Positions 1,702-43,257 are shown, numbered from the stretch's first letter. The stretch is 64,000 nt of DNA from a virus (IMGVR_UViG_3300037586_005524:1-64000); one strand, 5' to 3'. Notes: generated by a model not told the origin, from the letters alone. Made by a program: numbers and translations.

Positions 1702-3273
1702 TTAAATGTCTAATTTAAGCTTAAATGTATATTCATCCGTTTCTAATTTTCTAACAGGTGTCGCGACTTTTGCGATTGCTATAAGATTTCTGTCTTTATC
1801 GTATATACCAATTTTATCAATAAATGTTTGTTTTTTAAAGCTCCCTGTAAACCCGCCCTTAAAAGAGCTACTAATTGTATTTTTAATGGTTTTGACATCG
1901 CTTTCTTTATAGAAAGAAGACCCAGATATTGAACCAGAACCTTGGCCAAAATTTAAATATGTAGGATTGTTTGACCAATTTAAATACCCTTTTTTAGCGT
2001 GAGCCATCATTGTAATTGTGGGAATATAAGTTGTGCCTGAAAATAACAATTCAAAAGAAGAGCTATGTAAAGATGCAGTGTTTACAGTTCGATAACTGCT
2101 CCCCTTGTCTGATGTATACTGGCCTTGGTTAGCATCCCAATTGTTTGGATACCCATCATTCATTCCTGTTCCAAAATAAATCCACGAGGGGCTATCGCCA
2201 GAATTATAACGCTGATAATCTTGGAGTCGCGGAGGCCCAAATATTGGATTCGAGGTTCCTTCTGGGCTAGTGAAAGCTGTGCTCTTTCCTGTTGTTAAAT
2301 CCCAGCTACCTGTTAAAACAATAGCGCCCTCATTATAAAGTACGATTCCGGCAACAGAACCAGACTGAAAGCTTCCAGAAGGGCCGGTTTGAATCAGTTC
2401 TCCATTTCTTTTTGGATCTTTCAGTTCCCCAACCAGAGTGCCAGTTATATAATATTTTAAATTTACAGTTCCTTTTTTGATGGCGCTTCCAAAAAATATC
2501 GAAGGCACATCAATAATAGAAACAGCTTGATAACTTTTGTCCCATGCGTGATAGCCTAATTCTTTTCTTGAATCAACTGGGTGAAAAGAAGAAGAATAAG
2601 TAAAGTGTGGGCTCCATTTTCTATAATAATTAATAGTATTTTCTAATGCCTGAATATATTTCTTTTTTAATTCTGGGGCATCTGTTATGGTTAGTTCCTT
2701 TGTTGGGTTTGCTGGGTTTTTTGTTTTTATCGTAGTTTGATCTTTTGTTTGATAAAAATATGTATTACCATCCGGGCCTGCAGGATCTATTTCATTTCCG
2801 TTTTCGGCGGAACCTTCGGTATAAAATATTCTTGTAATAGAAGCAGTTAATGGATAGCTTCCGCTTATTATATCCCCATAGTTAAAATCGTCTACATATG
2901 AATCGTACGCTACGCTTTTTAAAGAAATTTTACTCCCGGCTTTTGTTATAAAAGGAAAGATCAGGCTTGCTTTACCTTCATCAGTATCAGGACCCCAATT
3001 GCTGGCGTCGCCGGCGTTTGCTGTATTAATAGTGTGTAAGTCTTCGCGCCTATCAATGTTCATTTCATATGAATTAATATAACCAGAATTACAAGAACTA
3101 GTGTGGGCGCCCACAGAATACCCGACGTGCCCAATTGGACTGTTATATGCTCCACTTATAACATATTGATTATTATAATATGTGCAACCTTTCCAACTAA
3201 AAAAGTGACAACTTGGATGTGCTTTTATGCGATTGAAGAAAACGTCGTCTTCATTAAATTTATAATATGGCAT
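1702..3273 (-). CDS. baseplate/tail-fibre attachment structural protein with C-terminal tail-collar-like segment
   Basis: C-terminus IGIYDKDRNLIAIAKVATPVRK resembles the ELGLYDxxGxLIAVA motif of P2 gpH-like tail-collar domains; paralog of 3292..4461. Confidence 0.6.
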   Translation of the reverse strand: MPYYKFNEDDVFFNRIKAHPSCHFFSWKGCTYYNNQYVISGAYNSPIGHVGYSVGAHTSSCNSGYINSYEMNIDRREDLHTINTANAGDASNWGPDTDEGKASLIFPFITKAGSKISLKSVAYDSYVDDFNYGDIISGSYPLTASITRIFYTEGSAENGNEIDPAGPDGNTYFYQTKDQTTIKTKNPANPTKELTITDAPELKKKYIQALENTINYYRKWSPHFTYSSSFHPVDSRKELGYHAWDKSYQAVSIIDVPSIFFGSAIKKGTVNLKYYITGTLVGELKDPKRNGELIQTGPSGSFQSGSVAGIVLYNEGAIVLTGSWDLTTGKSTAFTSPEGTSNPIFGPPRLQDYQRYNSGDSPSWIYFGTGMNDGYPNNWDANQGQYTSDKGSSYRTVNTASLHSSSFELLFSGTTYIPTITMMAHAKKGYLNWSNNPTYLNFGQGSGSISGSSFYKESDVKTIKNTISSSFKGGFTGSFKKQTFIDKIGIYDKDRNLIAIAKVATPVRKLETDEYTFKLKLDI

Positions 3274-3291
3274 AAAATTTGTTCCATTGGT

Positions 3292-4461
3292 CTAATAATC
3301 TAGTCTAACACGAATTGTTAATTCATCTTCCGGAGTTTTCTTCAAGGGCTCAGATAGCTTGGCCACAGCTAACATTTCATTTTGCGCATTAAATAAGCCA
3401 ACAGTTGTAATATATGTGGTTGATATATCATCTGAGTTGTTTTTAACATTAATTTGGCCTCCAGATACATATGTTGGATTAGAACTATAATTAAACTCAT
3501 TATGGTTAACTCTGCAGAAATAGATTGCAGAATTTAATTCCGTGGTATTATTAAATTGAATATTATAAATTCTATTTCTTAAGCCGTCGCATGCCGCTTG
3601 AATTGTTGAACCAGTAAACATTTGCACACCTGAAGCAGATAAGCCAGAGCCCAATTCACATATGGCTTGGCCACCGTCATTGGCGGCACCATTGAAAAAG
3701 GCGCCTGCTCCAAGAGACGAGGACGCTCCACCAAAAACTGAACCAGAAATAACTGCCACCCCTGCTTGATAATAAATCAGTCCAGCAGGTAGATAACTCT
3801 GCACCTCACCAATTGTTTCGTTTCCAAGTAATGCCGTGCTTAAAGTGCTGTCGCCATCATATGATGTTTGAGCAAAAAGCACACCATATTCGCCTGCAGG
3901 AGAATTAACTTTATATCCATCCGACCCACTTCTATCTGTTAATTTTATTCTTCTTGAATGTACTGCGCCAAAATCAAAGCCACCACTAATGCCAAGCTCT
4001 AATTGAAAAGTACCTTTTTTAATTTCATCTTTAACAAGAAGTCTGGAGAAATTCAAAAAGTAAACTTCATCCATTTTATCGCCACTATCAATAGTTGATC
4101 CTCCGACGTCAAATCGAAGAATTGAACCAGTATGATCATAACCAGCTAATACCTGAGCCATTTGATTATAAATGTTTATTTTTTTCTCTTGTTGTGTCCC
4201 GGGCGTTGAGGCAGAAAAACTTGAATGTGCGCTAAACCCACAAGTAACGTCAAAAATATGATTTGCAGAAGAGCTTAAATATGGGTAATCATATACTGAC
4301 TGGAACATCCCATGTGAATAATTTTTTACATTTTCATCCGCATCAGAAACCACGTAGGTTCCAGAAATAAGCGATCCCGTTAGGGGGATATGTTCATGAA
4401 TTAAAGTTTTTCCTGTTTTTTTATCTTTTGGGGTTATTTCTTTTGAATCGCCAGTTGCCAT
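3292..4461 (-). CDS. baseplate/tail-fibre attachment structural protein, paralog of 1702..3273
   Basis: Shares IKKGT, G(I/L)xxYxxG, NxSxNPTY and the C-terminal VGLFNAQNEMLAVAKLSEPLKK...IRVRLDY with its neighbour. Confidence 0.6.
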   Translation of the reverse strand: MATGDSKEITPKDKKTGKTLIHEHIPLTGSLISGTYVVSDADENVKNYSHGMFQSVYDYPYLSSSANHIFDVTCGFSAHSSFSASTPGTQQEKKINIYNQMAQVLAGYDHTGSILRFDVGGSTIDSGDKMDEVYFLNFSRLLVKDEIKKGTFQLELGISGGFDFGAVHSRRIKLTDRSGSDGYKVNSPAGEYGVLFAQTSYDGDSTLSTALLGNETIGEVQSYLPAGLIYYQAGVAVISGSVFGGASSSLGAGAFFNGAANDGGQAICELGSGLSASGVQMFTGSTIQAACDGLRNRIYNIQFNNTTELNSAIYFCRVNHNEFNYSSNPTYVSGGQINVKNNSDDISTTYITTVGLFNAQNEMLAVAKLSEPLKKTPEDELTIRVRLDY

Positions 4462-4484
4462 TATTTATTATACCTCTTTTTTAT

Positions 4485-5540
4485 TTAATTACTACAATCA
4501 ACAAATTCCTTTGACTTGTAAAATCTAACAGGAACATCTATTGATGCACCTGTGTAGACACCTGATACTCGAATATAGGAATCTATTCTCCATAGAGTTC
4601 CGGCTGCGGCCTCTGCATCAATATCATTTGTGCCGCCGGCGGTGTAGCATGTGCTGCTATTACCTATGGTTGCAGCTGTGGTGTCCCAATCAGTACCAGT
4701 ATCTTGCGTCCCATGTTTCTGCCAAAGACTTTTTGAAGAATCTGGGTCTCCACTTTGTAATAAATCTGAAGCCATAATTTTAAACTCTATCTTATTGCCT
4801 CGCAGCCATCTTATTTTTGGTTGGTGGGGCTTTAGAGAGTCATCAAATTTATTCATTTCTGTAACCAAATCGGATCCCGCGGTTGCAAGAAGGAGTTGAA
4901 TTGCATCCTCATCGACAAAACTTCCATTTTGAGTTTCGCCGGTTACATTTGCGATTTGACAAAACCTACTATCATATTCAATATAAAAACTATCTTCATT
5001 TAATTCTGATAAATTGCTACCTTTCAAAGGTCCTGGTGTTTTTCCAGGAGTGTCGATCCCAAATTCTAATCGGATTCGCGAATTGGATTGCCCGGGGAAC
5101 ACTCCATTGAGAACGCCTGTTTCTGCATGCGCTCCCATCGCCCGGGCAGTGCCGACAGTACATGCAACAATAAATGTTTCTTTTGCTGGATCATACTGAA
5201 AAAACCCCACGTCTTTCCCATAACTTTTTTCCACCTCTGTGTTTAAAATTAATTGGGGCAAATAAAGAAGGTTAGGGTTTGTATAAGATATTAATTTGCT
5301 ATTAAGGGAGACCTCATTGTTGGTTAATGCTTCAAGAATTGGCGTTTGAAGAATCTCTAAATCATAATATGGGCTGCCACCTGTGTGATCTAAATTAAAA
5401 TTTTCATAATTTATTTCGTCGTCACCCAATTTAAAATGATTTATTTTAAAAGTTCCGTCGCCGCGGGCCATTGCGCGTCGGCCGGCGTCGGTTAATACTG
5501 CATCTAAAATAATATCTCCACTGTTATCTTGAAAAGCCAT
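4485..5540 (-). CDS. virion structural protein with N-terminal tail-collar-like segment
   Basis: DAVLTDAGRRAMARGDGTFKINHFKLGDDEINY resembles the LTxxG...GD start of P2 gpH-like collar domains; AGGAG RBS. Confidence 0.55.
   Translation of the reverse strand: MAFQDNSGDIILDAVLTDAGRRAMARGDGTFKINHFKLGDDEINYENFNLDHTGGSPYYDLEILQTPILEALTNNEVSLNSKLISYTNPNLLYLPQLILNTEVEKSYGKDVGFFQYDPAKETFIVACTVGTARAMGAHAETGVLNGVFPGQSNSRIRLEFGIDTPGKTPGPLKGSNLSELNEDSFYIEYDSRFCQIANVTGETQNGSFVDEDAIQLLLATAGSDLVTEMNKFDDSLKPHQPKIRWLRGNKIEFKIMASDLLQSGDPDSSKSLWQKHGTQDTGTDWDTTAATIGNSSTCYTAGGTNDIDAEAAAGTLWRIDSYIRVSGVYTGASIDVPVRFYKSKEFVDCSN
4486..4493 (-). promoter_or_regulatory. candidate late promoter motif AGTAATTA
   Basis: 24 nt upstream of ATG 4461, followed by a GAGG RBS. 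Confidence 0.4.
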
Positions 5541-5566
5541 TTTATACTCCTTATTCTGCGCACTTA

Positions 5567-5574
5567 TAAATAGT
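5567..5574 (-). promoter_or_regulatory. candidate late promoter motif ACTATTTA
   Basis: GTACTATTTATAAG in an intergenic gap, 26 nt upstream of ATG 5540. Confidence 0.5.
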
Positions 5575-5630
5575 ACGTATTATAAATAAAATCTTTTTCT
5601 TCTTTTTAAATTGCAATTGAGCATTCATTT

Positions 5631-8600
5631 TTAGTCTATCGGCGCCTTTGGTTTTAAATCATAGCCAAGGCCTTCGTGGCTATGAACAAAGTTCAAGTTT
5701 AAATCAAACATTTTTCCAGAAGATTTACTAGTAATTCTTACTTTAAATTTTTTTGCGCGGGGTCGACCGAAGAGCGGGCCTAAAATAACATCCTGGTCCT
5801 GTTTACTCTCTGCATCATATATACTAGCTGCTTCGGGGGCACTTAAATTACTTTGTTTTATCGTAGGAACTATATGTACATATTTTTTCATGCTTTTAGT
5901 CTTTTCTCTTGAGGTCTTTTCAGTAAAATCAACAATTTTGTTGCTTAAATAAATTGCGCCACTATCATCTATCAATTCAACTTCAAAAATTGGACTTGGA
6001 TTTGAAACATAGCCATGCCTATCCGTTGATCTGAACATATAATAATATTTTTTATTTGGCGAAACATTATCAATAAAATCTTTTTTATCTGGGGCCATCT
6101 CTTTTCTCAGGGCCGTGCTAAAATCTGACCAATCTATCGGGTGCTTTTCAAGTCTAAATATTTGATATGTATAATCTGGCTCATCTGATTTAAAAATAAT
6201 TTCAGAAGATGTGCCCTGTGCCGATTTTGCTTTATTAAATAATTCTTCATCCCCAGGTAAAATTGGGATTGGAACATCTTCGCGTTCACCTACGTATTGA
6301 CTAAATAAAAATAATAATTTGTTATTTATATTTTGATATGGAAATATTTCCATATTAGGATATAGTGGCGGAGCATCTGCCGTATACAAAGTTGGGAGTT
6401 TTATGTATGGAATTTTTAATAATTTAATTTTTGGTTTATTAATAGTATAAATAGTTGCAACTGGTGGACGCTTTTGGGTGCTGCTAGCAAGTTCGACGTC
6501 TATTATCTGTGTTTTTGTAGCTCCTTCTGGTGTCGGGAAATACCGATCAACAAGATTAATAGTTTCTCCCTGGATGTCTTGATATTGATATTCATTTCCT
6601 ACAACTATGACATAAGTATAAATTGTATAATCATACCCTTCATTAAGTTTGATTTGGCTATCAATATATTCAATCGATGCTTCGCCACTGAGATTGGTGG
6701 GCGCGGCAATAAAGAATCTTTGGACTATTTGACCGTGCTTGCTTTTTTCAATCTCGTAAAACATTATTTCAGTATGTGAAAAAGGATTCATATCATAATG
6801 GACACCGTACTTTTCGCGGGGCGCACAACGGCTTCGGCCTGGTGGTTGACATATCTGTTTGCCCGGGCTAACCTTTATCTCCTTCCCATCGTAAAGGGGC
6901 GCATTAAGAATCTCATAAATAGATCTCGTATTCGCGAACTCTTTAAGTTTGTCCGTGACCTCCCAAAAGGCATTACGAGCAGGAAGGGGTATCCCATTAA
7001 TGTCATCATCGAGGTCGTGCCATCCAGTATTTTCGATTCCAAAGTCGAAAGAAAGAAGATTAGATGATTCCACAGCGAAGTCATCGCTGCTCCACGCACC
7101 TACAAATTGTGTCAAATCCCATGAAAAAGTGTCTATACTTTCTTTAGAATCCACCTCTCTTTTCCAATAATTTTCTTCAGTTTCCATTACGAGTGGGTTG
7201 CCGGCAGCAAGAGCCATTAAAAACAGCATCAATTGGTCCTGACTTGGATCTGGGTCGGATCCCTCCCCTTCACTATTAAATATTTTTTTCAAAAACTGGT
7301 CCGCGGGACGCGCCTCCGGTACATTAATTGTTATGTCGGTCGCCCATGGTTGGTGAAAAAGGTCAAAACGATATTCTTGTAAAAATTTATACTTTGGAAA
7401 GCCAAATATAAAAGCTCCTTCGGGTTTTTCAAGGCTAGGCACACTTATAGAGTTATTCTCATTTGGGTTTACCATTTGTGTCCAAATTTGCATATATTGA
7501 TCAACGCCTATATTTTGATCAAAATACCATGCGTATGAATTGATCATCAGGCTGGGGTCCAAACTATATTTTGCTATCCCTCCTACTGTTAATAAATCAC
7601 CATATATTGTATTTGCCACGGTGCCGTCGGGGAATTGTCGATAAAATCTTTCTTTGTTCTCTGCTAGTTGACCAAGCAAATAACTATTTGGAATAAGAAG
7701 ATGTTGTTGATCAGACAAAATATTTACCGCGGCCTCGTAATTTAAATTGCTGTAATTTACCACTGAGCTTTGGCGGGCCGGGTCAAATCTTGGATGGTTT
7801 AAATGGAAGGCACTATCAGTGTAAAGGTTGTATTCGTTTATACCTTTTGAAACACTGGAAGGTCCGTAAGCATGTGTCCTATTTTTATAAGTCTCTCTAA
7901 TATGTTTGGCAAAGACAAGATTTACTTTAGGCGACCATAATTGCCATTGGTTTCCCGCCTCCATCGGATTCATAGTTTCTTCGCCGGCGTCCATCATCAC
8001 TTTCCTTGCTGCTTCATTACTATAAAAAATATCTGTGGTTTCTAAAAATATAACCTCCTCGGGAACGGTTAGCCCGAATTCATCGATAACAATTAATTCG
8101 GCGAGTTGTTTCTGTGTTGTTACTTTGGGCCCCTCGGTGCCTTGATGTGTCACTTCCGGCGTGCCATGGAATCCCATTTTTTCGTAAAAGGGCTTATAGG
8201 TTTCGAACCCGACTCGGCTCATGGCATCGTGATGATCGGCATCATAAAGCCAACCATTAAGTTTAGGATTATACATGTCAGGGTAAACACCCGGTTCGTA
8301 TATATCGATCAAGTGAGTGTGGTGAGGCGGAAATGGTCCGTCCAATGGATCGTGACCGGTCGTTTTAAGAGTGGCTAATATATCTATGCCAATGTCAGAG
8401 TCCTTGAAAAAATTAGCTATTTCTGCCCAGGCTGAATTTATGAACACTCCAGTGGTAAAGCCGCTATTATGTGCATTTATGTAGCCTTCGTGATAATGAG
8501 GCAAATAACCCGAATGTATGGCTTCGATGGCATATGCATGCCATTGGTCCAAAGTCTCGGGATTCTCGGCTGCACTACTTTGCCACCAAGACTTAAAAGT

Positions 8601-8993
8601 TTCCCACTCTGGGGTTGCCTGAGTAGAAACAGTTCTTATTTTTTTCTTTGCTAAAACGCGAAAAGTTTTGGCATGAGTCTGGCCGGGTGACTGGCGCCAC
8701 TTTGGACTTGGGCGTACAAATCTATTTTCTGTTTCGTTTCCCCAGCCTGGAAGGTCGACCAGTGAGTCGCCGGCGCCACCGGAATACATCCAGTGTCCAA
8801 AATAAGGTCTTAGTGGGTCTCCAGGGTGTCCCTCGCCCGTCATCGCGGTGGAATGAATGATCGTGGGGTTTAAATATAGAGGGGTTATAGACCCATAGAT
8901 TTTTTGCGCATTTTGGTGAGCCAATGAGAGGTGTTCGTTGAGCGTTTGGCCGCCAACGAGGCCGCCGGCAAGTAGATATGTTCTATGTGGCAT
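5631..8993 (-). CDS. large putative virion protein with C-terminal fibronectin type III-like segments
   Basis: 1120-aa ORF; FN3-like strands YIDSQIKLNEGYDYTIY and FIDNVSPNKKYYYMFRSTDRHGYVSNPS; start overlaps the upstream stop (TAATG). Confidence 0.55.
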   Translation of the reverse strand: MPHRTYLLAGGLVGGQTLNEHLSLAHQNAQKIYGSITPLYLNPTIIHSTAMTGEGHPGDPLRPYFGHWMYSGGAGDSLVDLPGWGNETENRFVRPSPKWRQSPGQTHAKTFRVLAKKKIRTVSTQATPEWETFKSWWQSSAAENPETLDQWHAYAIEAIHSGYLPHYHEGYINAHNSGFTTGVFINSAWAEIANFFKDSDIGIDILATLKTTGHDPLDGPFPPHHTHLIDIYEPGVYPDMYNPKLNGWLYDADHHDAMSRVGFETYKPFYEKMGFHGTPEVTHQGTEGPKVTTQKQLAELIVIDEFGLTVPEEVIFLETTDIFYSNEAARKVMMDAGEETMNPMEAGNQWQLWSPKVNLVFAKHIRETYKNRTHAYGPSSVSKGINEYNLYTDSAFHLNHPRFDPARQSSVVNYSNLNYEAAVNILSDQQHLLIPNSYLLGQLAENKERFYRQFPDGTVANTIYGDLLTVGGIAKYSLDPSLMINSYAWYFDQNIGVDQYMQIWTQMVNPNENNSISVPSLEKPEGAFIFGFPKYKFLQEYRFDLFHQPWATDITINVPEARPADQFLKKIFNSEGEGSDPDPSQDQLMLFLMALAAGNPLVMETEENYWKREVDSKESIDTFSWDLTQFVGAWSSDDFAVESSNLLSFDFGIENTGWHDLDDDINGIPLPARNAFWEVTDKLKEFANTRSIYEILNAPLYDGKEIKVSPGKQICQPPGRSRCAPREKYGVHYDMNPFSHTEIMFYEIEKSKHGQIVQRFFIAAPTNLSGEASIEYIDSQIKLNEGYDYTIYTYVIVVGNEYQYQDIQGETINLVDRYFPTPEGATKTQIIDVELASSTQKRPPVATIYTINKPKIKLLKIPYIKLPTLYTADAPPLYPNMEIFPYQNINNKLLFLFSQYVGEREDVPIPILPGDEELFNKAKSAQGTSSEIIFKSDEPDYTYQIFRLEKHPIDWSDFSTALRKEMAPDKKDFIDNVSPNKKYYYMFRSTDRHGYVSNPSPIFEVELIDDSGAIYLSNKIVDFTEKTSREKTKSMKKYVHIVPTIKQSNLSAPEAASIYDAESKQDQDVILGPLFGRPRAKKFKVRITSKSSGKMFDLNLNFVHSHEGLGYDLKPKAPID

Positions 8994-11900: not shown

Positions 11901-12175
11901 GCCTTTGATAAACTTATCTTTCCAAGGCTGCCATCATTTTTTGAATTTTCTATTAATTCAAAAATTGCTTTTTTGTTATTTAATTTAAGTTTTTTAATTA
12001 TATCTTTGTCGGCTATTTTAACAATACTTAATTGCATTGTTTCAGTCATTGGGCCCACTTTTGTGTTATTCATATAAACCGTTATAGTCACTCTAATATT
12101 CTTTTCAGCCGTAGTCGGCTCTAAAGTTATTTTAGAAATATATGGTTGCACTACTTCTGTTTCTGGATATCCCAT
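8993..12175 (-). CDS. large hypothetical protein (putative structural)
   Basis: About 1060 aa within the tail operon; likely start is ATG 12175 overlapping the upstream TAA; Thr/Gly low-complexity C-terminal tail. Confidence 0.6.
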   Translation of the reverse strand: MGYPETEVVQPYISKITLEPTTAEKNIRVTITVYMNNTKVGPMTETMQLSIVKIADKDIIKKLKLNNKKAIFELIENSKNDGSLGKISLSKAEVKTFDLGSKNTVTQEFFIDKNTSDLSFYAICQYNPNHPRHARRISSSPSYKNLLINTATIASEDVFRNKTIVRNANVFVFRDSTVTLPKGQEDYLVSQGGKRVWTGPVQFTSDGHVGSMGDNSSVIGPKLNLVKIPNTTLHDYRVLDKISKVNFSCRLLENKPLIDKKNAQFSNLCITNDKNGFIRLFFAIDLGEISKNNFKLPRLVASETDFSLALDSSKLSFDEIMSLSEIKNIVLTREKVNEAGDISPESKSHNNVQQTIARSTQVGAVVATTDYSVKKDPHIANHISNVKKIIGKLTEVKGLYLEPSTSTFNNLNSSKQIRYFGSTDISMQDIKDGLFKYGVKLEVEDGTIKYIKQLLNDLTEGRKAMELYFKDFKSGTLRKNYMVNDKGPWVWALNILLKAVKAFANLENNDEQQMYILSSPNTATTESISKVIDIYNNVSSFIQDLVEEFPSKNTRNIDEMNSNAVISGKKTFTQTISINHVFPDIFNAKNNGEVGYDYLDVIYGSKTSEIGLMTFSSADFLRRTMNENLRFFKQSAQQTGILAGNKRYENQLSTTQFSYLTPALIKILGRNFRTYGKGDQGQIQNASELGHFSVLMDLYSHKTMNRLHKENISTLAEVGKSQSNSCTTGDIFAQKSDGFSTHVKNGLAQNMAIINTTALKKYESSCNEIPSKEENTIAKLMHNSVAEKYKKEIQAKDDREDRINITEETKINPSFIFAPLFYMNNLDIAKEICCCSTALNLNISKQNLSTSEFKFLPNQLKAIAASSAGSTLTKQAWYDNGEPQLKQLKNAAFYYLNQKNIVLIEVLVGFDRGAIAAPIWTRLRRDHLENASRSPNKKLLCRLSPYTNPKLCFNQNRVLDLNLFNQCFLINAEGTPRTAARRPKRTIRPVEVPTSLDNNSLLKINSNFVRTNMMFGEAAKFRQTSKTKTTQTTAAITTATTPGTVTTTGGGMSSGGGRTY
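8996..9110 (-). repeat. Thr/Gly low-complexity C-terminal tail
   Basis: Encodes TSKTKTTQTTAAITTATTPGTVTTTGGGMSSGGGR. Confidence 0.5.
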
Positions 12176-13272: not shown

Positions 13273-13284
13273 TTCTTTTTATTC

Positions 13285-16200: not shown

Positions 16201-19200
16201 TGAATAATTATTCTGTAGCTCGCCGGCGCCGTCATTTCCGGGAGAATGTTGGCCGCGTCTTGCTTCGGCGGCCGAACCTGTTCTTCCGTCCAGGGCCCAT
16301 ATACTTTGTTTAAGAATTGTTTGACCTTGAGAATTTGTTACATTAGTTTTAGTTCTATTGGACCGTGTTTCTCTCCAAAAATCAACAAAATAATTTGTCC
16401 TCATTCTTGCTTTTGCTAAATATACATTAATTTCTCTTGGATAAATCATTTCTCTATAATACAAACTAATAAGATTCGGCTTAAAAGAAACTACATCCTC
16501 TAAATAAAGATTTTTAATATAATCATATACTTGATCTCCGCCATAAAGTTTAGATTTAAGTTTATTCTGTACTTCGATATTTGCGAAACTTGCTAAATTG
16601 TTTCCATACGTATGTTGGATTATACCCTCTTTAAACACATGAACCATAGGCTTAAAACGACTTGTTGCCAAAGATTCAGTATGATGCTCAAGCCTATTGT
16701 CATAAAAGAAAGATAACATACTGTCTTTTCTTTCTTTTCTCATAACTGGATGTTGAGCTAATCTTGCCTGTTTCCAAGACGGCCAGCCATAAGGGCCTTG
16801 TCGATGGAGAATTAAACTATTAAAATCGTTGGGGCGCACAATCGATGCAATATTTGTATTTTTATAAACTCCATTAGAAGAGCTTAGAAGGTTCAAGGGT
16901 GAATCAAGGGGATCATAAATTAATGTATTGAGCCCAACAAAATCAACCGGTATTGTGGGGCCGCCCGCAATTGCTGCGGCGCCAGTGAGACTAGCACTTA
17001 ATAATGTTAAATCAGTAGAAGCATCCGGACCATATCGTCTAATATCGTTAGTTCGTGGGGTTTCATAACCATACAAAACTGACCCAGTATAACCAACAAT
17101 TAAACTAGCTGATATCCAAGAATATTGCATATCTGTTCTTGGAATTGGATGTTGAACCCAATAATTATCATAAGCAACCCCGGTAGGAAATGTAGTTGCC
17201 ACTTTCGTAGAATCCCCTTCAAGCTCTATTCTTCTTCGTGGGTTTCTATTAACCTTGTGATAAGAAGGCATTGGCTGGCCAGAAGTGCTAACACCCGCAT
17301 ATCCTGCTGATTTTACATCAGTTTGAGTGCCCGCATAGGAACCACCTTTGGCCGGGTCTTGAAAACCAGTACTAATGGCTGTTTCCCAGCTAGCAGAATA
17401 TTGTGCATCGCTCCAATATCCAAATTGGTTACAGTGGTTTGTTAAATATTCTTTGAGAGGTAATCGAGCTGCTAAATTTCTATAATTAAGACAATTATAT
17501 ACTGAGTATTCTCCAGATTCAAGATCTAAAAAGGCTGCGGCCATTGTTTCAGGGCCTCCTGGTGCACTAAATCTATTAACAAAAACAAACTCATTTGAAC
17601 CAGTTACAGAGCGATCAATAGATGTAAAATCAGGAACCCCTTGTACTGGTAGCTCTGCTGAATCTGGCTTTTGGCGATCAAGCCAATTAATATTTATGCC
17701 ATTGTTTTTAACAAAATATCTGTTATTGATTTTTCTTCCAGCGGTGGAAACGATATTATAATCAAATCTATAGTTTCCTATTTTTGTTGTGTGTTTTGGG
17801 TCTCTATAGCCGCCGGAGCCGGTTGTCGTACGAATATTTTCAATATTAACGGGACGCTTTGGCCCATTCCAGAACATTGAACGAGGGTTGTGGACAGAAG
17901 CAGATATAGGAGAAACAATTGTTACGTATTTGTTGCTTGAATCTTCTTTAAACACCAATCTCCAACCTTCTACTCTATTTGCCCTAGTATCTAAATTAGA
18001 GCCAACTTTAGCGCTGCCACTAAATTGCGACCAAACGTGTCTATATGGAAAGCCTCCAACCCATTTTTCGGTAAATGGACCTTGCATTGGTATTTCATAG
18101 TGTGGAGTATATATATCTTGGTGTAAATTAGCGAAGTCAATGCCGCCGGTGAAACTGCTTGAAAGTATTTTATTATATCCAGTAACGACAGAAGAACTCA
18201 TAATAGTGAAAGGGGTTGTCCATTTAGTATACGAATCCCCAAAATAATCGCGTTCTCCAGTGTCTGCGGAGGCGCCGCGGCTTTTTACTCTGGATGTGGT
18301 TAGAAATTCTCTCTTTTTATTTTTTGGAAAATATAGTCTCCTATATTCTTTGGCTATATCGCTTTCTGCAACCTTTTCATTTGTAACTTCCAAACCAACA
18401 CTTTCAGATCCAGAAACATTATTTATTAAAGTTTTAAATAAAGTTGGCTTTTTGTTTATTAAATTATTGACTCCGCCGTGTATTGGCTTAAATATATGTG
18501 CAGATAGTCTACCAGGACTCCGATTTGCTCTTTTAGATGTTTCAATTATAGCATCAAAGATTCTTTGTCTTGCACTATCGACGTCGCTATCTCCACTTGA
18601 AATTGCTGGTTCTGTAAGTTTGGCTCTTGTCCATGATAATGTATTTTTTGTTTCGTCATTTTTCTCCCAATCTTCATTGTCTGGGAGTCTCACGGTCATT
18701 TGAGTAGGTCCGTGCGCTTTCAATGTTTTTGTTAAACTTGGTTTGGCGGCATGGTGAGCCGAATGATGGTGCTCGGTAGTAAACTTGATTTGAATTTTGA
18801 TGCCATTATCATCTTTGGCTTCGCCGCCAAGGGTGCTTTCTAGTACATTTTTAGTATGCTTTTCTTTCTTTTCAATAATAGGTAATTTTGACCAATATTT
18901 ATTTCTTTCTAAGATATGGCTTTCAACCATATTTCTAATATTTTCAGAAAATCTTGAAGAAGCGGGAATAATTTGACGGATCATATTAGATATTGATTGA
19001 TCAATCCATTTATAATAATCAATATACTTCTCTAAATCTGGACTTACTATGTCGCCAGTGTTTTCTACTTTTCTTTCGAAGAAAAGTTGTCGTAGTTTTC
19101 CTAAAGCTTTATAATCTTGTCTGTATCGATTGGCTGGTTCCCCAATTAAATTATTAAAATCTTTAATTGTCGCAAAAAATCTTAACATTTCCTCAGAAAT

Positions 19201-22200
19201 TGTCTGATACATGCTTTTTTCGATGGCAAAAAAGTTAGTAGTGGGCCTTATATGTTTTGTAAAAACAATATCATCAGAATCTAAAATCTTCACCATATCA
19301 GAAGAATTGACATTCTCTGGTATGTTTTGTTTTGCTGAATATATGTATTCCTTGCTTATAACAGATTTATTTGGAGAAAAGAAATCTCCTTTTCCTGTAT
19401 GTTGTAAACTAGTGATTCCACTTATTGCTCCGTAACTTGAAGTAATATTTATAGAACCAGAAGACATGTCCGCAACTGAGAAACTAGCATTTTTATCACT
19501 AGTTCCATAATATGAATCGCTATTTGCTGGGCCCGAACTAGATAATCCGGTAAAATCCCAATTTAAAGCAAGGGTTTCTATTTGGGGAACATATGGTTGA
19601 GTTATCCCTTCGTTTTCTCCATCGGATGGCATAACTTCAAACAAATATGCAGGCTTGTATGGATTTAATCGACCAATATTTTTTGGGTCTCTGGCGTGTG
19701 CTCGAATGGTTTCATTATCAAGATAGTCTAACCAGCATCTTAATGAAGAAAACTTAATATCAGTTGGAGTTAAATAGGACCCAGTAAAATTAGTTCTATG
19801 TGCGCCTGCATAAGCTCGTTTGGAGCTAGATAGAAAGTTTTCTCCTTGTGCTTGAGATAGATTTCCAGTAACTAAAAATTCATTATTTATAGTATTTAAA
19901 TCATTATTAACACCATAAAACTCTATCACATATGCAAGAGGGCCATCCGCTTTCATCTTTTCGTCCATTTGAGAAAGAGTGCCAGATACGTAACTTGCTA
20001 ATGGATGCTTTTCTGGTCTGACCCGAACGGCAAAATTCCATTTATTATTATCATATACTTCTTTAAACACACTGCTTGTTAGCTCTAAAGCGAATCCCTC
20101 ATCCGAACTACTAAGCATAAAAAATGCATCTTTATTTGTAAATCCGGCCGAGGACACGATATCGTCATTTAATGTCTTTCTACATGCATAAACTTGAAAA
20201 TTTGCAGAGTCATCGCCGTGCCAAGTTAAATCATTATAGTTTTGTGCACTACTGGGAGGCTCTTCATAGTTTGTTTGCCTGGCAGTATGCATACCAAAAA
20301 GGGAGGCCGAAAGGTTTGAAAGCATAAAATAATTTTGATCCCGTGGAGATCCGGGATCTGGAAAAATAATCTCTGCTTCTGTTGTAAAAGGAATGGCGAT
20401 ACGAGTAAGCGAAGTGGATGTCGGTGTTGATTTTGAACCCGAAATAAAGGATACTGAGTTTGTATTTGCGCTAGATGTAAATTGATAAATTGTTCCATAA
20501 GCTCTGCCTGAATTACTAAAATCAACACAATTCTTTTTAACGGTCACTGAAGAAAAATTATTTTCAAATGTATAGTCTGATTGATCCGCATATAAATTTA
20601 ACTTTAAAATTTCATGATCAATACCAAAACATCTAATTAAATTTCTAAATGCTTTTTCGGTGCCTTTAGACTTATAGATAAGAGATAAAGAATTATAAAT
20701 ATTTTGATATATTTGATTTTTTATATGATAAAGTTTTTTTTCAAATAACTCATTATTAGACTGATTTAAAAATTGTGCTAAAATGTCGGCATCTGCAAAT
20801 ATTTCTGACGTCACGAATCCTTTTGATTCCAAGGCATCTTTTATAAAATGGTGTGGCTTTTCATAACTTCCGCTTGGATAAACTACATTTTGCAAAGTAG
20901 GCAATTCTTGTATTTGTAATTGCAAAGTATCAAAATAACTTGCCATTATTTGTGTTAGTTTTTTAAGTATTTCTCCATTTTCACCATCTTCATTTATTAT
21001 CCAAGCAGGCAAAGAATTATAAATGGCTGCATTATTTGAAAGATCGTGATGTTTTCCTTTGCTTATAGAAGAAGTCAAATAAGCATTTACATCTGGGTGT
21101 GTGCTATATAGAATCGGATCTTTAAACTCATAAGAGGCCGTTACTAAATTACTCAATGTAATAGCTGAACCGGTTTCTCTATGGCCAGAAGTATATCCTA
21201 TCCAAGTTCCATTATTAACCCGTCCAGAATAGTCTAAAATTGTTGAATCTGTGGGATTTTCTCCTGTTACGCCCTCATTAAACTTATAATAAACGCCCAA
21301 ATGTGTATTTGCATTGTCAGTATTTGTACCGCCGCCGACTTGCGTAAACCAATGTCGTCCAATTTGTTGAGAGTTTCTTTCTGTTTTCCAAAATCTAAAT
21401 TCATCTAGCGCGCCGGAAAACGGAGCCCAGCCTAATTGTGGCGTGCTATCGCCGCGCGGCGAAGTTGCAAGAACACCGATTGTTGCGAGCATGCCGCCGC
21501 TTACATAATCAACAGTTGCGCTTGACTGTTCTCTAATTAAATTAGTGGTGGTACCAACAATTGTATCATTGTGGGCTCCGTCGACATATAATTTTGCTTG
21601 TAAGTTTCCGGCCGCAAGACTTCCGGAATTTGCAAATGTAAATGCATAATGATGCCACTTATCATCACTAAAATTACCTGTTATCCCTTGACCAATAGAC
21701 GCTGTTTGAAAACCCACTCCGCCAGTGGTACCATCGGTGCTGCCACTTATATATGTAACTTGAAATTCTGGGTTGGCGGCGCCAGCACGGTAGATCTCTA
21801 TGGCCATGCGACCATACCCAGCTTCAGCTTCTGTTGCATTCACGGTATAAGTGTCAAATACTACTTCTCGTGCTAGCCGAGTAGTATCTTCTTTTTTCAT
21901 CCAAAATTCTACTGTATTGCCATCAACACCATCGATTTTTAAATTAGATTCTCTATTTTGAGATTGGTCATAAATATTGGAGTAACCACTTCTATAGTCG
22001 CCACTAGTATCGGTTACTTTTTTTCCTTTTCCGCGAGTGCTAGGATGTGGGCCGCCTCTAAATAAAATATATTCTGGGGTGGAAGAACTGAAATAATTAT
22101 TTGAACTGGCGCCATCAAAATAGCCAGAAGTGTCGCGAGCCGCAATGCGAATAAAACCATTTGTTCTAGGATATTCATTTTCAAAAACATAGTTATCTAG

Positions 22201-22479
22201 ATAAGAAGAAGAAAGGTACCAAGAAGTTCTCTCATATAAAGAGCCATCATATGGATAAGTTTGATAAATTCTTTTAACGGCATCATTGTAATATTGTTCT
22301 GCAGAACCAAAAAATGCAAAATTAGAAGCACTAGAAAAATCAATTCGAGGAACAAATCTTTCTTTTTCTTGGATATACGCGCCCATATATTCATAAGATT
22401 CAACTTCTTTTGCTAAAGAATCGATATCTGCTGAACTTACTATAGTTTGTGGGTCATCAAAATATTTTTTTGTATCCAT
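13285..22479 (-). CDS. giant baseplate wedge protein (gp7/P2 gpI-like segment plus LamG/concanavalin A-like domain)
   Basis: 3064 aa. LamG motifs: TVEFWMK, DDKWHHYAFTF, KLYVDG, FSGALDEFRFW. The segment YKSKGTEKAFRNLIRCFG matches the KGT...G motif of gpI/gp7 wedge proteins. It lies downstream of gp25 and gp6. Confidence 0.65.
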   Translation of the reverse strand: MDTKKYFDDPQTIVSSADIDSLAKEVESYEYMGAYIQEKERFVPRIDFSSASNFAFFGSAEQYYNDAVKRIYQTYPYDGSLYERTSWYLSSSYLDNYVFENEYPRTNGFIRIAARDTSGYFDGASSNNYFSSSTPEYILFRGGPHPSTRGKGKKVTDTSGDYRSGYSNIYDQSQNRESNLKIDGVDGNTVEFWMKKEDTTRLAREVVFDTYTVNATEAEAGYGRMAIEIYRAGAANPEFQVTYISGSTDGTTGGVGFQTASIGQGITGNFSDDKWHHYAFTFANSGSLAAGNLQAKLYVDGAHNDTIVGTTTNLIREQSSATVDYVSGGMLATIGVLATSPRGDSTPQLGWAPFSGALDEFRFWKTERNSQQIGRHWFTQVGGGTNTDNANTHLGVYYKFNEGVTGENPTDSTILDYSGRVNNGTWIGYTSGHRETGSAITLSNLVTASYEFKDPILYSTHPDVNAYLTSSISKGKHHDLSNNAAIYNSLPAWIINEDGENGEILKKLTQIMASYFDTLQLQIQELPTLQNVVYPSGSYEKPHHFIKDALESKGFVTSEIFADADILAQFLNQSNNELFEKKLYHIKNQIYQNIYNSLSLIYKSKGTEKAFRNLIRCFGIDHEILKLNLYADQSDYTFENNFSSVTVKKNCVDFSNSGRAYGTIYQFTSSANTNSVSFISGSKSTPTSTSLTRIAIPFTTEAEIIFPDPGSPRDQNYFMLSNLSASLFGMHTARQTNYEEPPSSAQNYNDLTWHGDDSANFQVYACRKTLNDDIVSSAGFTNKDAFFMLSSSDEGFALELTSSVFKEVYDNNKWNFAVRVRPEKHPLASYVSGTLSQMDEKMKADGPLAYVIEFYGVNNDLNTINNEFLVTGNLSQAQGENFLSSSKRAYAGAHRTNFTGSYLTPTDIKFSSLRCWLDYLDNETIRAHARDPKNIGRLNPYKPAYLFEVMPSDGENEGITQPYVPQIETLALNWDFTGLSSSGPANSDSYYGTSDKNASFSVADMSSGSINITSSYGAISGITSLQHTGKGDFFSPNKSVISKEYIYSAKQNIPENVNSSDMVKILDSDDIVFTKHIRPTTNFFAIEKSMYQTISEEMLRFFATIKDFNNLIGEPANRYRQDYKALGKLRQLFFERKVENTGDIVSPDLEKYIDYYKWIDQSISNMIRQIIPASSRFSENIRNMVESHILERNKYWSKLPIIEKKEKHTKNVLESTLGGEAKDDNGIKIQIKFTTEHHHSAHHAAKPSLTKTLKAHGPTQMTVRLPDNEDWEKNDETKNTLSWTRAKLTEPAISSGDSDVDSARQRIFDAIIETSKRANRSPGRLSAHIFKPIHGGVNNLINKKPTLFKTLINNVSGSESVGLEVTNEKVAESDIAKEYRRLYFPKNKKREFLTTSRVKSRGASADTGERDYFGDSYTKWTTPFTIMSSSVVTGYNKILSSSFTGGIDFANLHQDIYTPHYEIPMQGPFTEKWVGGFPYRHVWSQFSGSAKVGSNLDTRANRVEGWRLVFKEDSSNKYVTIVSPISASVHNPRSMFWNGPKRPVNIENIRTTTGSGGYRDPKHTTKIGNYRFDYNIVSTAGRKINNRYFVKNNGININWLDRQKPDSAELPVQGVPDFTSIDRSVTGSNEFVFVNRFSAPGGPETMAAAFLDLESGEYSVYNCLNYRNLAARLPLKEYLTNHCNQFGYWSDAQYSASWETAISTGFQDPAKGGSYAGTQTDVKSAGYAGVSTSGQPMPSYHKVNRNPRRRIELEGDSTKVATTFPTGVAYDNYWVQHPIPRTDMQYSWISASLIVGYTGSVLYGYETPRTNDIRRYGPDASTDLTLLSASLTGAAAIAGGPTIPVDFVGLNTLIYDPLDSPLNLLSSSNGVYKNTNIASIVRPNDFNSLILHRQGPYGWPSWKQARLAQHPVMRKERKDSMLSFFYDNRLEHHTESLATSRFKPMVHVFKEGIIQHTYGNNLASFANIEVQNKLKSKLYGGDQVYDYIKNLYLEDVVSFKPNLISLYYREMIYPREINVYLAKARMRTNYFVDFWRETRSNRTKTNVTNSQGQTILKQSIWALDGRTGSAAEARRGQHSPGNDGAGELQNNYSIHHGGTDIITPAACYVRPISASAAEGDMLYGDTLWEAGNPFYDSYDDYSNEIRRVGQKYSIASEFRMSEHMEYFLDEKNGNFFADREGFLTCTGSNYADSTVNNFFKTYSHSDFLKHFSLIYEDHKGVIEPSRIALTCNAIMKLLPYKGFYPADRTLQLATLFSQSYSSTEYGTDKYEDNSKRRIALTPFFAPGILYNSIKSGVAVDYPIYTKQPGTTTAGGTVTMTTPYSLGTGSTAAHENLYRLSASFDYRLPFDSLVRPETYIGNGSYIYEAEPDPTARVSGSADSTEASPIATGSIKLDLVKSDTYKLAMHNFLATSIDLFLKNGEVSTLISSKNEDSYIVDSTNVYKMRIYLADHQDVSTNNTRNFSMYNRESAFGPTVDSCKDGGPGGYAPFTPPYYYSDSVTGYSYVEYSFTPWKHTVAERYGTEGANEYTLDEIISNSTITKHRSVDGSQLSGSGTHSADYLQDIAMMNLTASVSIFQKDARFVIQPKFETPILNFTNVTKTSFSEGDSSTKGMWHQKGVYETDNSKGIFLGVLDVAGNESLADLLTIDKGLKKLGILPDDKEKTIREAVVAIPVIKKFNKRTGRVQTKFINIHKNIVKRAVADILAGKTPEESSVTTSVYNMVKTMQRYIIPPQFDFLTQLKKFGSKRFRPFAMYLFEFEHEFSQEEIANIWQNIQPEIAQTHKKEKATICHRLEQGELLTAKDLKNPDLHWMIFKVKQKAKWNYFDKVINLAGMLPPRPDAGPAPAGVQLGIQATAPQVDSHGSANPFHPLRSTNEFIGGPTNGGNNGDANGPAVKMDMAPSAPSNIKHGLLSSGIRTNIEDIIEYARLESDVASGYGLDYSYNWPYDFCSLVELIKVDVEAQFGGKGMVQVHPSAASLKSDMGSLGSGGEGIVVTGEGAQSISSRHPDIQEETRSATTVTTMQSVVEQTGNKLQLIDGQEKSRGQGSTAQSTGTKLGLID

Positions 22480-22483
22480 GTGC

Positions 22484-24124
22484 CTACTCTATATCTGTTG
22501 AGTGTTTTTCTACTCTAAATTTAAAAGTCTCTGGTTGCTCTACATATTTTCCATTCAAATAATATACAATTTTAATTCCGTACATATAATCGTTCTGAAG
22601 TATTGACATATCTAAATCAAAATAGCTTCCACTAACATCATATGAAGCTCTTGTGTGATTTAAACTACCTGTCCCATAATCAAGAACAGTTAAATTATCG
22701 TGCACTCTAAACACTTTATAATAAACATCTTCAATAATAGAAGATGATATCTCTGTTGTTGCTTTTGTATATATATTTGGGCTCCAGTTTTTATTTCTGG
22801 CAAATAATCTAAATCTAGCAGTCTCCTCATTAGAATAAATTGATTTAAGATTTTTTATAGAAGTGGCATAAGTATCGTTAGGATTGTGCTCGTATGATTC
22901 AAAGCTTTTAACGGCTATACCTGATCCTGTGTGAAATTCGATATAGCTGGCACCGGTGCCGCGATGAGTAGTGGCGCTTCCTGTTGACCAAACATCATAA
23001 ATTGTAGTTTCCGAGCCCGTATATGCGAATGAGGCGCTATAAGTACCTGAAGCAATATAAGAAGCAGTTATAACAAAAGCATTGTTAGCCGTTACACCTC
23101 CTCCTTCTGGTAGGGATTTTGCGTTACCATCAAGAGTAGCAAAAATCCTAACATCTAATTTTGTTTTTTGAACATTTTGTAAAGTTCCAGCATCGAGCCT
23201 AGCACCCGCTCCTCCTAAATTTGGTATATCTTTTAATTGCCCTCTAATATAATTGTACAAATAAAGAGTATTCAAATTGTCGGCGCCGCTAGCTAAAGAA
23301 CTACTTAAATAAAAATTTCCTCTATTGTCTTTTTTAGAAGAATCCCAACGAGCCTCAATTGCTGGTCGTTTAAAGAAATATTCAGACCCTCTAGCAAAAA
23401 ACTTTTTAGTGTAATACGAATCTGTAGAGCCAGTTGGATTTTTAAGCAGGCCATTTGTGCCATCAGTCATGTCTGTATTTTCATATTTGGCCTCTTGGCT
23501 GCTTGTTAAATGTACGCCAAATCCATATCTCGCACTTGATTTGTCGCCTAGAACGTTTCCAGGAGAATGTAACCATTGTTCTACTAGCGTTGTCACATCT
23601 ATCTCAAGATCTTCTGTCCCTTTTTCAAATGTTTGTTGAAAAGTAGAACCCTCCCCTGTATCATAGTCACCGCCGGGCCTTGTCCAGGTTGTTTTTTCTG
23701 TTGCCCTCATCCAATTCGAACCTGTGCCATCATATGTTAGATCTCTATAACCTTCCATGTCGAGGCCGCGGCCTTCTTCCCAATCTTTAGTTACTGCAGA
23801 TGCAGAAAGTGTGAAACTTCTTGGAACCGTAAATGGATGTTTGGCATTGAACATTCTTAAATAAAAACTTACGCTTCCGGAAGCAGGAATATCACCATTT
23901 GTTCTATCTGTGTTTATATCTGTAACTGGAAAATTAATAAGAACTCTTGATAGTTCTGCTGTTTTTGCTGCGTTAGAGCCACTAATTGTTTGTCCATATA
24001 TTGAAAAAATCTCCAAAGAGTCCGACATCCCCATATTTGAGCCAGTGCCGCGTGTTGTTAAACCTGCTTTAAACGCATTTGTAATTGTTGTGTCTGCGTT
24101 TGCTGTATACCTTTTTATAGCCAT
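22484..24124 (-). CDS. DNRLRE/disaggregatase-related domain virion protein
   Basis: Pattern ADTTI...SRVLINF...FYLRMF...KDWEEG...NW...WTRPGGDY...DLEIDVTTLVEQWL...YGF. Confidence 0.55.
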   Translation of the reverse strand: MAIKRYTANADTTITNAFKAGLTTRGTGSNMGMSDSLEIFSIYGQTISGSNAAKTAELSRVLINFPVTDINTDRTNGDIPASGSVSFYLRMFNAKHPFTVPRSFTLSASAVTKDWEEGRGLDMEGYRDLTYDGTGSNWMRATEKTTWTRPGGDYDTGEGSTFQQTFEKGTEDLEIDVTTLVEQWLHSPGNVLGDKSSARYGFGVHLTSSQEAKYENTDMTDGTNGLLKNPTGSTDSYYTKKFFARGSEYFFKRPAIEARWDSSKKDNRGNFYLSSSLASGADNLNTLYLYNYIRGQLKDIPNLGGAGARLDAGTLQNVQKTKLDVRIFATLDGNAKSLPEGGGVTANNAFVITASYIASGTYSASFAYTGSETTIYDVWSTGSATTHRGTGASYIEFHTGSGIAVKSFESYEHNPNDTYATSIKNLKSIYSNEETARFRLFARNKNWSPNIYTKATTEISSSIIEDVYYKVFRVHDNLTVLDYGTGSLNHTRASYDVSGSYFDLDMSILQNDYMYGIKIVYYLNGKYVEQPETFKFRVEKHSTDIE

Positions 24125-25935: not shown

Positions 25936-25959
25936 ATTTAACGTATTTCCCTTATAATA

Positions 25960-26352
25960 TTAAATAGTGTCTTCAAAGAAGAATTCCACAACATCATAGA
26001 TCCGTAATGGTTTGATAAGATATTTAATTTGAAGTTTAAATAAATGAGGATCTCCATACTCTATTTCATCTGGGCCGAACATTGTTACCTTCACTTCTAT
26101 AAATGGCATATATTTATTAACTTGACTTATGATTCTTGTTTCTATTTCTTGGTACGTTAGCTCGTGATTTGGCTCAAATAAATAATTTCTTATTCCGACA
26201 CCATATTCAGGATCCATAATTCGTTCACCAGGTGCAGTTAAAACAAGCATTTTTAAATTTTGAGATACCATTTCTGCATAAGTTTTATTTAATGTATAGC
26301 CGTCGCTTGTATCTTCTTGTAATGGTAATTTTGGTGATAGCCCTGATGCCAT
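25960..26352 (-). CDS. gp25: baseplate wedge subunit, gp25/GPW family
   Basis: QNLKMLVLTAPGERIMDPEYGVGIRNYLFE signature; AGGAG RBS. Confidence 0.92.
   Translation of the reverse strand: MASGLSPKLPLQEDTSDGYTLNKTYAEMVSQNLKMLVLTAPGERIMDPEYGVGIRNYLFEPNHELTYQEIETRIISQVNKYMPFIEVKVTMFGPDEIEYGDPHLFKLQIKYLIKPLRIYDVVEFFFEDTI
25961..25968 (-). promoter_or_regulatory. candidate late promoter motif ACTATTTA
   Basis: 25 nt upstream of the gp6-like ATG 25935, overlapping the gp25 stop. Confidence 0.45.
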
Positions 26353-43251: not shown

Positions 43252-43257
43252 TATTCT

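Follow-up and report, generated by a model that had tools for sequence, protein, structure and literature searches.

In a 64,000-nucleotide stretch of viral DNA (IMGVR_UViG_3300037586_005524:1-64000, henceforth the window; taken from the start of a viral contig of 83.2 kb), we found that four proteins of a phage baseplate module carry a short tripeptide, [ST]-[GAS]-S (henceforth the motif), far more often than their composition predicts. Together with the relatives of this phage, the evidence supports the view that the motif is under selection as a tag at the protein level, restricted to exterior virion proteins and superimposed on folds that are unrelated to one another. The explanation we favour, and hold with moderate confidence, is that it may serve as an acceptor tag for O-glycosylation of these proteins; that the modification would be a glycan, which residue would carry it and which enzyme would read it are the parts that we infer from sequence.

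Excess and specificity of the tripeptide

We counted the motif in each open reading frame (ORF) and compared the count with the mean of 1000 composition shuffles and, as a second control, with shuffles confined to 20-residue windows; the ratio of observed to expected counts is henceforth referred to as the motif ratio. Annotation scans used Pfam, PHROG and NCBIfam, and relatives were surveyed by anchoring on the baseplate gene gp6, which gave 60 IMG/VR loci in which the proteins upstream and downstream of gp6 were compared. The genes of the module and its surroundings (lengths in amino acids, aa; observed motifs versus the shuffle mean) lie, like every gene of the window, on the minus strand:

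1702..3273, minus strand: 523-aa motif-rich distal protein, the last gene of the module; 13 motifs vs. 2.8 (z 6.2)
3292..4461, minus strand: 389-aa motif-rich distal protein with a fibre-like C-terminal domain; 9 vs. 2.2 (z 4.6)
4485..12184, minus strand: three motif-lacking module proteins of 351, 1120 and 1063 aa; 0, 1 and 1 vs. 1.0, 1.9 and 2.9
12175..13272, minus strand: 365-aa protein, weakly enriched; 2 vs. 0.4
13285..22479, minus strand: 3064-aa motif-rich giant baseplate/fibre protein; 41 vs. 12.5 (z 8.7)
22484..24124, minus strand: 546-aa motif-rich baseplate protein, directly after the gp6-like gene; 16 vs. 2.9 (z 7.9)
24124..26352, minus strand: gp6-like (603 aa) and gp25-like (130 aa) baseplate wedge proteins; 1 and 0 motifs
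26426..35548, minus strand: 3040-aa motif-free protein upstream of the wedge genes; 0 vs. 4.4

Pooled over the four motif-rich proteins, we counted 79 motifs against 20.8 expected from global shuffles and 24.7 from shuffles within 20-residue windows, so the excess is not due to overall or local richness in Ser, Thr and Gly; the same explanation is ruled out by motif-poor orthologues (see below), which retain 8–10% Ser. Each of the four also kept its excess individually (z 4.6–8.7). The hand counts of the initial annotation (about 40, 16, 13 and 9 in the 3064-, 546-, 523- and 389-aa proteins) were reproduced by the program (41, 16, 13 and 9), as were its estimates of about 0 for the 3040-aa protein and about 1 each for the gp6-like, 1120-aa and ~1060-aa proteins (counted as 0, 1, 1 and 1).

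The excess was specific to the motif. [ST]GS alone occurred 40 times in the four pooled proteins against 6–8 expected, and related tripeptides ([ST][GAS]T, [ST][GAS]G/A/N, NGS, GGS, AGS and DGS) were found at chance level only; in a blind scan over all tripeptides, TGS, SGS, SAS and SSS took ranks 1 to 4. As initially remarked, the motif often follows a hydrophobic residue: position −1 was hydrophobic at 71% of sites (with Leu 4.2-fold over background), as was position +3 at 67%, and the full motif is therefore Phi-[ST]-[GAS]-S-Phi, where Phi is a hydrophobic residue. To control for a generic property of myovirus tails, 18 baseplate, fibre, sheath and head proteins of phage T4, of similar composition, were counted in the same way; these held 29 motifs against 30.3 expected, which rules that property out.

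The motif is also independent of nucleotide sequence and of any one fold. Its serines are coded by both TCN and AGY codons, and the four proteins have no cross-match or mutual homology apart from a C-terminal 120-aa domain common to the 523- and 389-aa proteins, which rules out a DNA repeat or codon artefact, in agreement with the initial annotation. Spacing in the window proteins is irregular, with no periodicity, and this and the lack of homology likewise rule out a shared domain or a periodic structural repeat; internal repeats were looked for in the 3064-aa protein and none were found. The earlier description of copies scattered through unrelated folds was thus borne out, and these folds include a single Laminin_G_3 domain at residues 185–373 of the 3064-aa protein (Pfam/PHROG scans). 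The AlphaFold (AF2) model of the 546-aa protein (mean per-residue confidence, pLDDT, 76) is all-beta, with fold-search matches to beta-sandwich proteins (a carbohydrate-binding module, an antibody and Ig/FN3 domains). In this model 13 of the 16 motifs fall in coil that adjoins the start or end of a strand. In the alignment, motifs are nearer to columns prone to indels than the remaining Ser/Thr residues are; both observations are weak proxies.

Pfam and PHROG gave no family for most structural proteins of the window, and none for the 546-, 523- and 389-aa proteins; a 'DNRLRE-like' label given earlier to the 546-aa protein was not confirmed. Families were assigned to RuvC, to a late sigma factor and to the gp25-like and gp6-like wedge proteins (PF04965 GPW_gp25; phrog_219, a wedge subunit), among others.

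Conservation, turnover and loss among relatives

The 546-aa protein belongs to a family with more than 5000 metagenomic homologues, many of them from Tara samples. Among 56 aligned homologues (about 53–80% identity) we found a mean of 14.2 motifs against 3.3 expected. Sites 27, 82, 274 and 485 were present in at least 95% of these sequences, the remaining sites occurred in 10–85%, and 67 alignment columns bore the motif in at least one sequence; a level of 9–20 motifs per homologue is thus upheld while some sites are fixed and others turn over. Within the family, motif residues were more conserved than the same residue types elsewhere (p 0.01 to 0.0008).

The excess recurs in the same orthologues across the clade. 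In 57 of the 60 gp6-anchored loci the motif ratio was 2.2–4.7 downstream of gp6 and about 1 upstream. Orthologues of the 3064-aa protein carried 42–61 motifs against 12–15 expected, and the open frame at the position of the 3040-aa protein carried 0–2 against 2.4–4.8, with one exception (8 against 5.1). In a complete 203-kb relative with direct terminal repeats (G009), 7 of 161 ORFs were enriched, five of which are orthologues of the window's 546-, 3064-, 365-, 389- and 523-aa proteins (e.g., 45 vs. 14.8 for the 3064-aa, 8 vs. 2.4 for the 389-aa and 8 vs. 2.5 for the 523-aa protein, and 5 vs. 0.8, z 5.0, for the 373-aa orthologue of the 365-aa protein); the orthologues of the 351-aa and 1120-aa proteins likewise lack the motif. 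Also enriched in this genome are a 256-aa protein (126188..126958; 16 vs. 3.3) and a gp13-like neck protein (136814..138085; 5 vs. 1.1), so the tag is not confined to the baseplate module. The remaining 154 ORFs held 108 motifs against 101.6 expected. An initial claim that the motif is absent from all other proteins therefore needs narrowing: the window's other structural proteins fall below chance (5 vs. 14.5), and its enzymes, like the remainder of G009, are at chance. Proteome-wide avoidance outside the tagged proteins was accordingly not supported, as only the window's other structural proteins are low.

The nearest cultured phages (gp6 at 31–33% identity) are Flavobacterium phage vB_FspM_immuto (henceforth immuto) and Microcystis phage Mel-JY01. 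In both, several proteins downstream of gp6, including fibres and 'spikes', were enriched (z 3–9.5), and gp6, gp25 and most upstream proteins were not; the 389-aa protein is homologous to motif-rich proteins of both phages. The 1053-aa 'tail spike' of immuto (L023:35287-38448) holds 60 motifs against 20.6 expected, many of them in periodic [ST]AS[YF] runs (see below) and in repeated [ST]GSF-[ST]GSF-x-GDGS-x-L elements, after which come YadA-head-like repeats; when the repeat region was searched by sequence against the PDB, no match was found. The adjacent p077 and p078 of the thermophilic Rhodothermus phage RM378 (NC_004735.1 64825..67547; L040:8826-11548), for which PHROG gave no annotation, hold 8 motifs vs. 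1.8 and 6 vs. 1.1, respectively. The motif was not enriched in the virion proteins of Tetrasphaera phage TJE1.

Three loci were motif-poor, namely L061 (ratio 1.4), L055 (0.8) and L087 (1.7). In each, the first ORF after gp6 is a full-length orthologue of the 546-aa protein at 41–46% identity, a divergence equal to that of the motif-rich L096 and L100, and even the near-invariant sites have been replaced (TGS by TDA or KDA; SSS by KRK, ESN or DVS; TGS by IGT or IGG). Full-length, motif-poor orthologues at this identity indicate that the motif is not needed for the fold. Further members of the L061 and L087 lineages (within-lineage identity down to 51%) all had ratios of 0.8–1.6. The motif-poor downstream proteins still contain 8.4–10.2% Ser with the motif at chance, and a scan over all tripeptides found no replacement tripeptide in these lineages. 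In a quick gp6 tree, L055 and L061 share a well-supported clade with the motif-rich L085, and L087 groups with the motif-rich L095 and L104; these supported branches require at least two independent losses of the motif.

Beyond the window, the contig encodes a PIN-PhoH fusion and a tubulin/FtsZ (PhuZ-like) homologue (genome positions 70404..71726 and 74622..75686), and relatives of this PhuZ-like/PIN-PhoH phage reach about 200 kb.

The glycan island, the glycosyltransferases and their association with the motif

Beside the virion module lies a large set of sugar genes, followed by a pair of glycosyltransferase (GT) genes:

38928..39623, minus strand: late sigma factor (phrog_234), at the virion-module edge of the glycan island
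40401..64000, continuing to genome position 65552, minus strand: glycan island
65549..66835 and 66832..68115 (genome positions, just past the window): GT4b and GT4a, overlapping genes for proteins of 428 and 427 aa

The island encodes epimerases of the short-chain dehydrogenase/reductase (SDR) family, UDP-sugar dehydrogenases, a DegT aminotransferase, a cytidylyltransferase, an adenylyl-sulfate (APS) kinase, carbamoyl-, sulfo- and methyltransferases, a radical SAM enzyme, and GT2 and GT4 enzymes. It encodes no polytopic membrane protein (the only membrane segments seen were two in a DUF2061 domain of the APS kinase and one in a 99-aa ORF), and Pfam scans of the island and the GT4 pair found no flippase, polymerase, oligosaccharyltransferase or polyprenyl-phosphate GT family, the proteins all being soluble. 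Such an absence of membrane, export and polymerase genes is what would be expected for cytoplasmic glycosylation of a soluble acceptor. Within the window, the APS kinase (42182..42940, with the DUF2061 segments at its N-terminus) and a sulfotransferase (46686..47360) suggest that the island glycan is sulfated, and a carbamoyltransferase (57825..59444) and several methyltransferases suggest further decoration. The genes at 47345..52201 form a sub-module (2-hydroxyacid dehydrogenase, HpcH/HpaI aldolase, cytidylyltransferase and GAPDH-like dehydrogenase), which may point to a keto-deoxy sugar acid that an aldolase route would supply and that would be activated with CMP. Island content is almost wholly genome-specific: among 13 motif-rich genomes compared, the SDR family alone was universal.

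We found that all contigs with island genes are motif-rich (the window genome, G001, G003, G009, G010, G012, G013, G020-G025 and G052-G054, together with 15 contigs among a further batch of 19 motif-rich contigs), and that no motif-poor phage has an island; GT4a lies on the same contig in most island-bearing, motif-rich cases. On all five of the long contigs that are motif-poor (G006, with 145 kb and a completeness of 80%, and G016-G019) the GT4 pair is present, and there is no SDR epimerase and no island. The gene order in G006 is nuclease, GT4a, GT4b, a 98-aa ORF and sigma, and in G016 four short ORFs (194, 215, 96 and 126 aa) separate GT4b from sigma. G024 and G025, sisters of motif-poor lineages, bear the island and are motif-rich. 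An SDR epimerase is not a perfect island marker, and was rejected as one, given that the 6.8-kb mini-island of G029 encodes an aminotransferase and a dehydrogenase but no SDR epimerase. The motif has thus been lost only in island-less lineages, and its link to the island is not strict.

The two GT4 genes form a trio with a preceding PD-(D/E)XK nuclease gene (genome 65549..68913; L011:1650-5014). Synteny of nuclease, GT4a and GT4b is kept in the marine relatives that were read gene by gene, among them G006 and G016, which are motif-poor; immuto and Mel-JY01 encode homologues of each of the three. Identity of GT4a and GT4b is 54–65% in the marine clade and 31–35% in the two cultured phages, with the catalytic E-x7-E motif intact throughout. 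In RM378 a homologue of GT4a is present, and the gene behind it can be aligned with GT4b, although this GT4b-like copy is without the second Glu of E-x7-E. GT4a and GT4b weakly match chlorovirus GT B736L, the sequence match to Gtf1 was also weak (E 0.036), and a Pfam scan found no DUF1975 in the phage GT4s. To judge from the relative immuto, DNA is probably not the acceptor of the conserved pair: liquid chromatography–mass spectrometry of immuto DNA gave dA, dC, dT and fdPreQ1 only (PMC10516641).

The window phage encodes, next to GT4b, a protein with a virus-specific 280-aa N-terminal domain (genome 63936..65552; L011:37-1653), for which neither Pfam nor the PDB gave a match. This domain is found as a separate protein or joined to either a GT2 domain or GT4b, and, with its GGGE loop and E-x7-E, is probably a miniature GT-B glycosyltransferase. 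GT4a, GT4b and the third GT beside them are the leading candidates for the enzymes that would read the motif, despite the difficulty raised below for the pair.

If the motif is a glycosylation tag, Phi-[ST]-[GAS]-S-Phi would be placed in surface loops of the peripheral baseplate, the fibres and, in the complete relative, the neck; soluble phage GTs would O-glycosylate it in the cytoplasm, sequentially and before or during assembly; and the hypervariable island beside the virion module would supply and elaborate strain-specific sugars, with a variable glycan coat on the tail periphery as the outcome. More tentatively, a single sequon might be read, in marine and freshwater members alike of this very abundant myophage clade, by a conserved soluble phage transferase that primes O-glycans, with the island diversifying them, making up a virion 'serotype' system that was lost together with the sequon in some lineages; we regard this fuller scenario as less likely than not, and as less probable than the tag function itself.

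Several observations weigh against O-glycosylation. First, the L077 lineage (G039 and G048-G051, at 70–100% identity) is motif-rich (ratio 2.7–3.9, with SGS and TGS as top tripeptides) yet island-less: its contigs of 29–60 kb show no SDR epimerase, and sigma is preceded by GT4a, GT4b and a GT2-like gene of 220 aa alone (plus the 98-aa ORF in G039). The motif can therefore do without the island, provided that the latter has not moved; either host nucleotide sugars are enough for the core GTs, or the island lies elsewhere, or the link is indirect. Second, GT4a and GT4b are present with intact E-x7-E in the motif-poor G006 and G016, and so either serve some purpose unconnected with the motif or do not read it; the pair is ruled out as a sufficient determinant of the motif. 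Third, the gene after GT4b takes two unrelated forms, a GT2 domain fused to GT4b in other relatives and the 280-aa domain described above, and neither was present in the two motif-poor genomes that were looked at; in their place, G016 (motif-poor) and the L077 lineage (motif-rich) have a third, different GT2-like domain. Fourth, no island gene family other than the SDR epimerases is common to all motif-rich genomes, and a conserved island-encoded reader GT was looked for among those compared and none was found. Finally, the hydrophobic flanks could equally mark a structural element at the ends of beta-strands, the [ST]AS[YF] runs of the immuto 1053-aa fibre, with their 6- or 9-residue period, look structural, and there are only two or three loss events in all.

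Considering this, the initial proposal of an acceptor sequon on exposed baseplate proteins with a self-contained glycan coat survives as to a selected tag on exterior virion proteins, mostly in coil, and fails as to the neighbouring 24-kb cluster alone being responsible: the island is genome-specific, and the L077 lineage keeps the motif without an island in that place. The GT4 pair does not track the motif. The refutations put forward at the outset that could be tried here did not succeed: the enrichment withstands composition control, the sites are not periodic, and no motif-poor phage has the island. The suggestion that relatives lacking glycosyltransferases would retain the motif was for the most part contradicted, though not cleanly, the motif-poor lineages being island-less and the island-less L077 being motif-rich.

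Alternative explanations and comparison with known systems

The main rival in our ranking, which we judge unlikely, is that the motif is an unmodified strand-end or turn element that gives exterior beta-sandwich and fibre domains stability, flexibility or hydration, and that a shift in host or habitat led to the loss of both motif and island. The hydrophobic character of positions −1 (71%) and +3 (67%) suits beta-strand geometry, the motifs lie at strand ends, the [ST]AS[YF] and SGSF-x-GDGS-x-L repeats of the immuto fibre fit such a role, and the L077 lineage retains the motif without the island. However, equally diverged orthologues fold without the motif, with even invariant sites replaced, and the third position discriminates strictly against Thr, Asn, Gly and Ala, though Thr is favoured in strands. 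An unmodified element also sits poorly with an overlay on unrelated folds (including Laminin-G), with T4 equivalents that lack the motif, and with the motif-poor lineages being island-less.

A lower probability still, such that we think it improbable, attaches to the motif being an acceptor for some other covalent modification (phosphorylation, phosphoglycosylation or acylation) by a phage or host enzyme, with the island only indirectly linked. This would explain the enzyme-like specificity of the motif, its presence without an island in L077 and the failure of the GT4 pair to track it, but Pfam, PHROG and NCBIfam scans found no kinase or other protein-modifying enzyme near the module, and the losses of motif and island would need to coincide by chance. 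Least probable are non-covalent carbohydrate-binding or adhesive loops on lectin-like domains, holding a phage or host glycan or aiding adsorption: the fold search with the 546-aa model ranked a carbohydrate-binding module first, a Laminin_G_3 domain is part of the giant protein and the motif co-varies with sugar genes, but known carbohydrate-binding sites are not built as one tripeptide over dozens of unrelated loops, and the sites turn over in position.

If O-glycosylation of the tag is correct, a large and abundant group of aquatic phages would coat the host-contacting end of its virions with self-made, strain-variable sugars. This would matter for adsorption and host range, for how readily virions stick to marine polymers, and for the rates of grazing and decay. 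It would also account for 7–28 kb of sugar genes without export machinery, and a three-residue sequon would allow glycosylated virion proteins to be predicted from metagenome sequence alone and be of use in glyco-engineering as a compact tag. Direct tests are feasible, as the cultured immuto and Mel-JY01 carry the motif.

Several known systems resemble the one proposed here. GtfA/GtfB is a cytoplasmic GT4 pair that O-GlcNAcylates the serine-rich-repeat adhesins of streptococci and staphylococci, with further GTs elaborating the glycan. The likeness lies in a cytoplasmic GT4 pair and an acceptor rich in S-A-S and S-x-S; the GtfA/GtfB acceptor, however, consists of long tandem serine-rich repeats, whereas the window has scattered single motifs and no repeats. 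An active/inactive pair of the GtfA/GtfB type was ruled out, as both phage GT4s keep E-x7-E in the marine clade, immuto and Mel-JY01, and there is therefore no inactive, chaperone-like partner among them. In the flagellin glycosylation islands of Campylobacter, Aeromonas and Pseudomonas, hypervariable sugar-synthesis genes likewise lie beside structural genes, no lipid carrier is known to be used, and the O-linkage is at Ser/Thr of exposed regions, often beside hydrophobic residues; flagellin sites differ in that they are not known to follow a strict tripeptide, and family scans of the phage sugar genes showed no Maf-type transferase and no Pse/Leg synthase. Giant viruses encode their own glycosylation (the chlorovirus capsid protein, mimivirus fibrils), which shares with the present system a virus-encoded, host-independent machinery, atypical sequons and exterior virion proteins as targets, and differs in that these are eukaryotic viruses with N-linked or fibril-specific chemistry and unrelated genes. 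The general O-glycosylation of Bacteroidota, a phylum that includes Flavobacterium (the host of immuto), also uses a three-residue sequon, D-[ST]-[ALIVMT]; it is a different sequon, though, and the process takes place in the periplasm by a lipid-linked route involving a flippase and an oligosaccharyltransferase, neither of which the phage island encodes.

Among papers that use the phrase 'virion glycosylation' with 'phage', titles and abstract openings made no mention of a tripeptide tag for the baseplates of myophages, and in those examined more closely the phrase serves only to cite the work on mycobacteriophages. Large aquatic 'moraphages', a lineage that may or may not be the present clade, were reported in 2025 to have four core GT orthogroups, whose target was left open (PMC12619734). 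The same paper summarises the glycosylation of mycobacteriophage virions by phage GTs (Freeman et al. 2023, Cell Host Microbe 31:1216). According to this summary (PMC12619734), mycobacteriophage glycans are found at the C-terminal ends of capsid and tail-tube subunits, whereas here the putative acceptor is a dispersed tripeptide on baseplate, fibre and neck proteins, and the enriched set in G009 amounts to just 7 of 161 ORFs, none of the genes there having been recognised as capsid or tube genes. Compared with what the summary describes, the gene sets here are much larger (up to about 28 kb). The hosts here are aquatic (Flavobacterium and Microcystis for the cultured relatives) rather than Actinobacteria, and the glycan is a putative one, read from sequence. 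As in the system proposed here, which has phage-encoded GTs both in the island (GT2 and GT4) and as the conserved GT4 pair, the soluble GTs of the summarised account are proposed to act in the cytoplasm on structural proteins of the same phage, with a coat that varies between phages (PMC12619734).

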